64,000 bases of DNA, taken from Candidatus Firestoneibacteriota bacterium. GTDB taxonomy: Bacteria; Oederibacteriota; D2-FULL-39-29; JBBTED01. Shown here one piece after another: positions 40,403 through 41,004 of the stretch. Within the stretch, counting starts at the first letter, position 1. Every line of letters begins with the position of its first letter. The position numbers and the translations under genes were made by a program. The notes beneath the pieces are model-generated. The model did no database searches. It saw nothing but the letters and a program-made list of their open reading frames with translations, and was not told where the DNA came from. The stretch lies in assembly GCA_038042445.1 (NCBI GenBank), contig JBBTED010000027.1, positions 37,651-101,650 on the forward strand, given 5' to 3'.

Positions 40403-40702
40403 TTACTGTTTTTTTGTTTCCTCGGATCCAGAACATTGACAACCACTTAATTTTTTTCGCGCCATTTGCCGAAATATTAAAAACAACCCTAAAAAAAACC
40501 ATAGTATTCCAACTGCTACAAAAATTTTGCTATGTTTGTGCAAAAACGCTACTGTCCCTGCTCCTAACAAAAATGCAAATGGGCCTGCAAGTATTGCACC
40601 ACCGCAAACAGGAGCACAAACAACACAAGTAGCTCCTAACAACCCTGCTACAGATGAAATTGCTCCACCTACCATATTAACTATACCCGCTTTTTTACTC
40701 AT
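40403..40702 (-). CDS. Small membrane protein with CxxC-x4-C and C-terminal CQC motifs (candidate metal/thiol-handling protein)
   Basis: MSKKAGIVNMVGGAISSVAGLLGATCVVCAPVCGG is a TM helix carrying the cysteines. A second TM follows, and the cytoplasmic tail reads SGCQCSGSE. It sits between the AbrB-like gene and hgcA with 4-nt and 30-nt gaps. Confidence 0.5.
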   Translation of the reverse strand: MSKKAGIVNMVGGAISSVAGLLGATCVVCAPVCGGAILAGPFAFLLGAGTVAFLHKHSKIFVAVGILWFFLGLFLIFRQMARKKLSGCQCSGSEETKKQ

Positions 40703-41004
40703 TTTTCTTTACCTCCTTTATTTATTTCTTCCATCACAGGTCCAAGTATGTTTTTTACCATACCTGCAAGTTCTTCAACTTTTATCAAACAAATACAACA
40801 CGTTTTTTTATTATCCCCCATGCTTGCCACTGCTAATTTATCACCAGATTTGATATTCGCTTTGTCTCTAACTTCTTTTGGCAACACCATTTGCCCACGT
40901 TCATCCACACTCACCAATGCCTCAACTTTGCAACAACTCATATTGTTTATACCGTTTGCATCACAACATGTTTCTTTTTTATTTCTTTTAGCCATTTTAC
41001 TCAC
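40699..41004 (-). CDS. AbrB/MazE/SpoVT-family DNA-binding protein with three vicinal cysteine pairs
   Basis: VSVDERGQMVLPKEVRDKANIKSGDKLAV is the swapped-hairpin looped-hinge-helix motif. Cys pairs are at ETCCDANGINNMSCCK and KKTCCICLIK. Confidence 0.6.
   Translation of the reverse strand: MSKMAKRNKKETCCDANGINNMSCCKVEALVSVDERGQMVLPKEVRDKANIKSGDKLAVASMGDNKKTCCICLIKVEELAGMVKNILGPVMEEINKGGKEK

Follow-up and report, generated by a model that had tools for sequence, protein, structure and literature searches.

We analysed a 64,000-nucleotide (nt) stretch of contig JBBTED010000027.1 from a Candidatus Firestoneibacteriota bacterium (hereafter the window, to which positions refer unless another locus is named) and describe here a tight minus-strand operon that contains the mercury methylation genes hgcA and hgcB. 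The operon comprises hgcC, a gene for a small membrane protein that we named TM99, hgcA, and hgcB (Table 1), and it lies within a single tightly packed same-strand cluster at positions 37999-41080. An earlier note on this DNA had drawn attention to the two small open reading frames (ORFs) upstream of hgcA and had interpreted them as a dedicated sensor and transporter for mercury. Both ORFs are present on the minus strand at the coordinates claimed. As described below, the first encodes a member of a large family of cysteine-rich putative regulators of the AbrB fold, whose closest members mostly precede arsM, and the second appears to represent a rare membrane protein family.

The first ORF had been read as a protein of 101 amino acids (aa) starting at GTG 41004. 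The ORF itself stands, but this start codon does not: hgcC almost certainly starts at ATG 40995, because GTG 41004 falls within the ribosome-binding site AAGGGGG. The resulting 98-aa protein (MAKRNKK...) has the same length as the NCBI entry for the identical protein (P0004). The 4-nt overlap between hgcC and TM99 was borne out (ATGA at 40699-40702), whereas the gap between the end of TM99 and the ATG of hgcA (40373) is 29 nt and not 30 nt; hgcC is located 326 nt upstream of hgcA in the same operon, with one small gene between them. HgcA scored 370 bits against NF040863 (cut-off 275), and its GINVWCAAGKG segment matches the motif N(V/I)WCA(A/G)GK. HgcB scored 110.2 bits against NF040864 (cut-off 99) and ends in ...NTSCCG. 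The operon promoter has 11 of 12 consensus matches and is the top-scoring site within 37900-41450. No RNA family was detected in an Rfam scan of 37900-41500, and the 64-kb window contains no second HgcC, no second TM99, and no arsM. In a fragmentary close relative (locus L081), the gene order is the same as in the window, including the position of the TusA-DsrE fusion gene.

Table 1. Features of the hgcAB operon in the window
Feature	Position	Strand	Description
Sigma-70-type promoter	41052..41080	-	-35 TTGACA (41080-41075), 17-nt spacer, -10 TAAAAT (41057-41052)
Predicted HgcC operator	41030..41053	-	ATCAG-CATATA-CTGAT-TTT-TAAGA; core and degenerate third half-site
Ribosome-binding site of hgcC	41004-41010	-	AAGGGGG
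hgcC	40699..40995	-	98 aa, SpoVT/AbrB fold, Cys-rich; CC at residues 10-11, 21-22, and 66-67
TM99 (name coined here)	40403..40702	-	99-aa small hydrophobic membrane protein
hgcA	39315..40373	-	Corrinoid protein, 352 aa, NVWCAAGK cap-helix motif
hgcB	38999..39301	-	2x[4Fe-4S] ferredoxin, 100 aa, C-terminal CC
TusA-DsrE fusion gene	38271..38960	-	PF01206 TusA and PF02635 DsrE; ~38 nt after hgcB
AhpD/CMD-like CxxC gene	37999..38250	-	TIGR00778 and PF02627; C-terminal GCGC; last in the same-strand cluster

The product of the first gene matches NCBIfam NF040962, 'HgcAB-associated protein HgcC', over the entire profile (1-70 of 70) with 110.2 bits (cut-off 70; E = 3.2e-32), and the identical sequence is already annotated as HgcC at NCBI. 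It also matches PF04014 (34.0 bits; gathering score (GA) 24.7) and TIGR01439 (44.5 bits; cut-off 28.3). These matches, together with the family-wide conservation of vicinal cysteine (CC) pairs described below, agree with the initial description of a SpoVT/AbrB-fold DNA-binding protein. The absence of a relationship to MerR or ArsR was likewise upheld, as HgcC gave no match to HTH_5, NF033788, or ArsR, whereas the true ArsR of locus L101 scored 56.2 bits in the same library. On the MazE equivalog NF050106, HgcC reached 17.4 bits against a cut-off of 65. The family is large: it comprises at least 905 protein clusters, and a scan of one genome per GTDB species yielded at least 586 confirmed stretches encoding an HgcC relative, in both Bacteria and Archaea.

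The solved structures nearest to HgcC are the N-terminal domains of SpoVT and AbrB (2ro5, 5itj, and 2l66; E = 4e-4 to 2e-3), which align with core residues 23-72. The AlphaFold2 model (predicted local distance difference test score (pLDDT) 70) contains a strand at residues 23-29, a helix at 40-45, strands at 53-61 and 64-72, and a helix at 73-95. In this model, CC10-11 is located on a disordered N-terminal tail, CC21-22 just before strand 1, and CC66-67 in the last strand. Foldseek with the monomer model returned no meaningful match, an expected outcome given that the swapped-hairpin fold exists only as a dimer. Among 81 homologues, the cysteines are conserved at C10 in 68 (84%), C11 in 62 (77%), C21 in 73 (90%), C22 in 80 (99%), C66 in 74 (91%), and C67 in all 81 (100%). 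The three CC pairs are therefore a family signature and not a chance feature. The third cysteine of the CCIC segment (C69) is found in only 2 of the 81 homologues and is not part of this signature.

To examine the gene neighbourhoods, we used the best-scoring 80 of the at least 586 HgcC loci. The gene directly downstream of HgcC is arsM (~275 aa) in 66 loci, hgcA-hgcB in 7 (L007, L008, L042, L056, L059, L063, and L066), arsA-arsD-like in 1 (L019), and another gene in 2; the contig ends there in the remaining 4. Three sampled arsM genes, checked against NF008823, scored 360-367 bits (cut-off 263). The proposed dedication of the regulator to mercury and hgcAB is contradicted by these counts. The notion of a conserved sensor/transporter pair did not hold either: no TM99 homologue was found in any of the 80 HgcC loci, and HgcC and TM99 are therefore not a conserved pair. 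Regarding conservation beside hgcA in other genomes, HgcC recurs there in the 7 loci listed above and TM99 in a second lineage (L096); those 7 loci contain no TM99. In a neighbour-joining tree, the hgcAB-linked HgcC copies, including that of the window, are found at no fewer than five separate places among the arsM-linked ones. The most economical reading is that HgcC regulates arsenic genes and genes for metal(loid) methylation and has been repeatedly placed before hgcAB.

Several individual loci add to this picture. In L066, an arsM gene (9552-10109) is present ~1.8 kb downstream of hgcB in the same locus. A single Syntrophaceae metagenome-assembled genome (CAZEKS01) carries HgcC paralogues before hgcAB (L063) and before arsM (L076), with near-identical operators. 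The L063/L076 pair and L066 point to a shared arsenic/mercury methylation regulon. In L019 (6233-7505), the genes that follow the HgcC homologue encode an ArsA-type ATPase and a small protein whose N-terminus carries a CC; the latter is ArsD-like by inspection only, and its sole family match is a weak one to thioredoxin-like proteins. In L020 (6331-8320), the homologue is followed by clustered genes for Cys-rich membrane or thioredoxin-like proteins, with one for a CcdA-like protein among them. These two loci widen the range of putative HgcC targets beyond methyltransferases.

We then searched the 120 nt upstream of HgcC genes (79 regions) for a common operator. The tetramers TCAG/CTGA occur at a density of 3.8 per upstream region, compared with 1.0 in the background, and the exact palindrome TCAG-N6-CTGA is present in 46 of the 79 regions, where ~0.19 would be expected (background 0.0024 per 120 nt). 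Companion half-sites show rigid spacings: 43 regions contain CTGA-N4-TCAG, and 44 contain repeats in the same orientation at N5. The consensus of the aligned sites is TATAAT-a-TCAG-taTATt-CTGA-TTtt-TCwGA. The operator directly follows the -10 hexamer TATAAT in bacterial loci and is located just upstream of a TTTAAATAT box in archaeal loci. Among the 8 hgcAB-linked loci, 6 contain the exact core. The site in the window reads TAAAA-TCAG-CATATA-CTGA-TTTT-TAAGA; its core (41039-41052) overlaps the last base of the -10 box, and a further CTGA is present at 41021-41024. This conserved palindromic operator at the gene's own promoter backs the regulatory role that had been assigned to the first gene. 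The pattern fits an autoregulated repressor and, as a sequence signature, supports DNA binding by HgcC far better than the fold alone. In the entire window, TCAG-N6-CTGA occurs 3 times (0.59 expected). The two additional matches, at 959-972 (just before a 104-aa ORF at 974-1288) and at 3287-3300 (inside an ORF), both lack the AT-rich centre and are probably due to chance.

TM99 could not be assigned to any Pfam or NCBIfam family, and the window protein gave no Pfam match even at E <= 10. A phmmer search of 1.84 billion representative proteins yielded 25 matches, of which ~23 are real (86-107 aa), whereas a k-mer search gave 2. A degenerate DNA pattern for the motif G-A-x-C-x-V-C-A-P-x-C-G identified 13 loci, all of which were chance matches in GC-rich frames. 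Relatives share this motif, which is followed by a conserved FLHKY loop and a basic C-terminal tail; the tail of the window protein carries a CxC. In an alignment of 24 sequences, C33 is invariant (24/24), C26 is present in 18, and C29 in 13, and the C-terminal tail contains at least one cysteine in 22 and two or more in 14. The Cys motif had been placed inside the first transmembrane segment of a two-segment protein. While the motif is real, its placement is unsettled, as the AlphaFold2 model (pLDDT 72) contains three helices (4-29, 35-54, and 59-85) and positions the motif where helix 1 gives way to helix 2. Both termini are basic (K+R 2.6 at the N-terminus and 5.5 at the C-terminus). On these sequence features, TM99 appears to be a rare, previously undescribed family of Cys-bearing membrane proteins.

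The genomic contexts of TM99 were compared at 12 independent loci, which include the window but not L081, its close relative. A metal(loid) methyltransferase is present in five of them. Besides the window, these are L096, in which TM99 follows hgcA-hgcB; L101 and L103, both with the order arsR-TM99-arsM; and L082, in which TM99 is fused in one ORF (132-728) to the N-terminus of ArsM. L096, whose HgcA is only 42% identical to that of the window, represents a second lineage with an independent link between TM99 and hgcAB. For genes so rare, five methyltransferase contexts out of 12 are far above chance. The frame of the L082 fusion runs across a TGA codon (501-503) that coincides exactly with the Cys pair of ArsM proteins, pointing to a membrane-anchored ArsM that contains selenocysteine. 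A search for a selenocysteine insertion sequence after this TGA found a hairpin, which was not significant (z = -1.2). In L102, TM99 is preceded by an 85-aa Cys-rich protein (332-589) that appears as a soluble domain (CWSCEC ... ECLGCNPCPP); the same domain is fused C-terminally to a TM99 relative in P0136, and its sole family match is a weak one to the N-terminus of MtrA (24.5 bits, far below the cut-off).

The earlier note had described TM99 as reminiscent of, but not obviously homologous to, MerF and MerT. In its architecture, TM99 recalls MerF, MerE, and MerT, which are small membrane proteins whose Cys motif is located in or near the first hydrophobic segment; MerF and MerT carry a second, cytoplasmic Cys pair. 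MerE, annotated as a broad-spectrum mercury transporter, has been reported to transport CH3Hg(I) as well as Hg(II). TM99 differs from these proteins in its CxxCxxxC motif, in place of CC or CPC, and in that its genes sit with methylation genes and not with mer resistance genes. In library searches, 1 of the 24 TM99 relatives (P0142) reached 22.5 bits against Pfam MerE, just below the gathering score of 22.8, and 2 of the 24 matched MerT (Pfam, E <= 10) with a best E of 0.024. A TM99 profile searched with hmmsearch against plasmid MerE, MerT, MerC, and MerP sequences gave no significant match (10.7 bits or less on MerE, MerT, and MerC), and hhalign against a MerE alignment returned a probability of 2.4%. 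Neither a profile search of the PDB nor Foldseek found any similar structure. No MerF match was returned by the Pfam library scans or the PDB searches, the only ones to cover this family. Homology of TM99 to MerE, MerT, or MerC was therefore rejected, no profile or structure match being significant, and the resemblance is one of analogy only.

Taken together, the arsM neighbours, the scattered positions of the hgcAB-linked copies in the tree, the conserved CC pairs, and the operator make it most likely that HgcC is an autoregulated repressor whose release is triggered by metal(loid)s that bind thiols, ArsR-like in function on a different fold and not mercury-specific. We favour, with moderate confidence, a joint explanation in which HgcC is such a repressor, mainly for arsM, and TM99 is an accessory that relays soft metal(loid)s. 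A dimer of HgcC dimers would bind the TCAG/CTGA half-sites arrayed directly beside the -10 box (TCAG-N6-CTGA-N4-TCWGA) and would block RNA polymerase, or TBP/TFB in archaea, repressing its own operon. Binding of a thiophilic metal(loid) to CC10-11, CC21-22, and CC66-67 would free HgcC from the DNA. Given the gene context, the likeliest ligand would be As(III) or methyl-As(III), and Hg(II) is a possible one. Control of arsM would be the main task of the family, with several placements before hgcAB, of which the window is one case. TM99 would be a separate, rare accessory to HgcAB or ArsM operons. From the ArsM fusion and the basic termini, we infer that its C-terminal Cys pair is cytoplasmic; the Cys cluster and this pair may pass a soft metal(loid) to or from the cytoplasmic HgcAB or ArsM.

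This explanation has to be weighed against several others. The one put forward originally, a dedicated Hg(II) sensor (HgcC) and a MerF/MerT-like Hg(II) importer (TM99) that evolved as a pair for HgcAB, would account for the co-transcription of both genes with hgcAB from a single strong promoter, for the occurrence of TM99 relatives beside hgcAB in two lineages, and for the family name 'HgcAB-associated' given by NCBI; vicinal thiols are also well established to bind Hg(II) avidly. Yet the predominance of arsM downstream of the closest HgcC homologues (66 of 80 loci, against 7 with hgcAB), the failure of the hgcAB-linked copies to form a clade, the lack of TM99 in the other HgcC-hgcAB loci, the ties of three TM99 relatives to arsM, and the lack of homology between TM99 and the Mer transporters all make a dedicated pair unlikely. 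A different possibility is that HgcC senses no metal(loid) and acts as a redox or Fe-S cluster regulator, limiting the oxygen-sensitive hgcAB and the anaerobe-type arsM to reducing conditions. Six conserved cysteines per ~95-residue monomer would suit this role, the sampled hosts (among them methanogens, Dehalococcoidia, Syntrophales, and Aminicenantes) all belong to groups known as anaerobes, and the window operon is flanked by nifS, nifU, TusA, DsrE, and AhpD-like genes for sulfur trafficking and Fe-S assembly. We nevertheless consider it improbable, since the family is tied specifically to arsM, arsA-arsD, and hgcAB and not to general anaerobic metabolism. Moreover, As(III) sites in ArsR proteins typically feature vicinal CC pairs, which are atypical of Fe-S ligation, where spaced CxxC motifs are usual. 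The top Pfam match of HgcC, PF04014, is named MazE_antitoxin, and relatives are labelled 'antitoxin PrlF' by KEGG and JGI. A toxin-antitoxin reading was ruled out, as HgcC has no toxin gene beside it, either in the operon of the window or at any of the 80 homologous loci. That HgcC is an orphan MazE/PrlF-type antitoxin, with TM99 unrelated and the proximity to hgcAB incidental, is very improbable: arsM or hgcAB lies downstream in 73 of the 76 uncut loci, HgcC exceeds the cut-off of its own family and falls far short of that of the antitoxin equivalog, and 5 of the 12 TM99 contexts involve methyltransferases, one of them as a fusion.

As for TM99, it may also serve, without any transport, mainly as a membrane anchor or scaffold that holds the methylating enzyme, or a thiol tail, near the transmembrane domain of HgcA and replaces in trans the Cys/Sec N-terminal extension of HgcA. 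Such an extension (CC or C-U) is present on most HgcA proteins (Haft 2022). We observed it as CC...CCC in L007 and L008 and as C-TGA (Cys-Sec) in L056 and L063, and a comparison of N-termini showed that the window HgcA lacks it. Both HgcA proteins with a TM99 neighbour (window and L096) are without the extension, and fusion to TM99 would hold ArsM, a soluble enzyme, at the membrane. The Cys tail of TM99 might thus act in trans for HgcA proteins that lack the extension, on the evidence of two cases. These are, however, two cases only, the HgcA of L042 also lacks the extension and yet has no TM99 neighbour, and a pure anchor leaves the invariant intramembrane C33 unexplained. Overall, a scaffold role appears unlikely but deserves consideration beside transport or relay.

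A number of observations also weigh against the repressor and relay explanation that we favour. The third half-site of the window operator is degenerate (TAAGA), the HgcC tree rests on ~95 residues, and the 80 loci are a non-random sample of the family. There is no arsM in the 64-kb window, and HgcC may therefore respond here to something tied to mercury methylation itself. The model of the TM99 monomer has a pLDDT of only 72, and the contexts of seven TM99 relatives (L097-L100, L102, L104, and L108) are uninformative. TM99 is, furthermore, very rare, and the other 7 HgcC-hgcAB loci lack it; it is therefore no general part of mercury methylation. A more far-reaching version of the favoured explanation can be put forward only tentatively and seems rather doubtful to us. 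According to this version, HgcC would found a new class of thiolate-sensing AbrB-fold metalloregulators in Bacteria and Archaea that puts arsM and hgcAB under one arsenic-type signal via TCAG-N6-CTGA-N4-TCWGA, and TM99 would found a new membrane thiol-relay family that feeds soft metal(loid)s to methylating enzymes.

HgcC shares several features with ArsR/SmtB proteins: both are small, autoregulated products of the first genes of arsM or hgcAB operons (autoregulation being predicted for HgcC), and both have vicinal Cys pairs and a palindromic operator that overlaps the promoter. In L101 and L103, a true ArsR occupies the same position before TM99 relatives. The two differ in fold, which is a swapped-hairpin beta barrel (AbrB/SpoVT) in HgcC and a winged helix in ArsR/SmtB, and metal binding by HgcC is a prediction. 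Compared with AbrB, SpoVT, and MazE, HgcC has in addition a disordered N-terminal tail with a CC pair, a CC pair before strand 1, another in strand 4, and a C-terminal helix, while it lacks both a toxin partner and a setting of sporulation or transition-state genes. In Pseudodesulfovibrio mercurii ND132, hgcAB is under the control of an arsenic-responsive ArsR (Gionfriddo et al. 2023, as cited in PMC10349881). As part of the joint explanation, HgcC would on balance be a functional analogue, on an unrelated fold, of this hgcAB-controlling ArsR, and it is better described as an arsenic-type than as a mercury-specific regulator.

A dedicated sensor/transporter pair in the hgcAB operon had been expected to be new; as far as the association of the regulator with hgcAB is concerned, this is not the case. 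In addition to the NF040962 family, Zhang et al. 2023 (PMC10349881) found hgcA directly preceded by a gene with the annotation prlF, mazE, or abrB in 14 hgcAB contigs (~39%) and in 8 of 31 confirmed methylators, six archaeal and two bacterial, and proposed it as a putative, mainly archaeal regulator. In the limited literature that we searched, no paper was found on the name HgcC in a mercury context, or on a ligand, an operator, or an arsM link of HgcC. What is new here is the dominant arsM linkage of the HgcC family, its operator and Cys signature, and the TM99 family with its links and fusion to methylating enzymes. While the name of NF040962 implies an hgcAB-specific partner, most members in our survey are linked to arsM and a conserved operator was identified, suggesting that the database name 'HgcAB-associated' is too narrow. 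NCBI's Prokaryotic Genome Annotation Pipeline would be expected to give this name to many genes that precede arsM.

Further genes and sequence features surround the operon. The TusA-DsrE fusion gene probably belongs to the hgcAB operon. AhpD-like genes such as the one at the end of the cluster are also present downstream of arsM in L061 and L073, and NCBIfam NF041537 describes domains related to an AhpD-like protein that are fused to ArsM-type selenoproteins. On the plus strand, a divergent cluster (41332-44019), read from translations only, contains nifS, nifU, a small zinc-ribbon-like ORF that is Cys-rich by inspection, and DsrE-like and TusA-like genes. A set of sulfur-trafficking genes thus surrounds hgcAB (37999-38960 and 41332-44019), and it is retained in L081. 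A perfect 16-bp palindrome, GTTCGCCTAGGCGAAC, occupies 41224-41239 in the divergent intergenic region. A terminator-like GC hairpin, GGGGCTTTAGCCCC, is present in the same region at 41192-41205, where no gene ends and no Rfam match was obtained.

Two questions are open in methylmercury formation, namely how the expression of hgcAB is controlled and by which route Hg(II) reaches HgcAB. To our knowledge, the only hgcAB regulator tested to date is ArsR in one Deltaproteobacterium. HgcC is the second common gene upstream of hgcA, and the finding that its family mainly governs arsM, as its operator and neighbours suggest, would extend the link between arsenic and mercury methylation to many methylators in both Archaea and Bacteria. 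The regulation of hgcAB is now directly testable, since the DNA probe, the cysteines, and the candidate ligands are defined. If the proposed role is correct, TM99 would be the first candidate for a substrate-delivery component of HgcAB. Because it is rare, TM99 offers no general solution to mercury delivery, but its recurrent pairing with hgcAB and arsM, together with the ArsM fusion, makes it a tractable model for the thiol-mediated hand-off of metal(loid)s to methylating enzymes.

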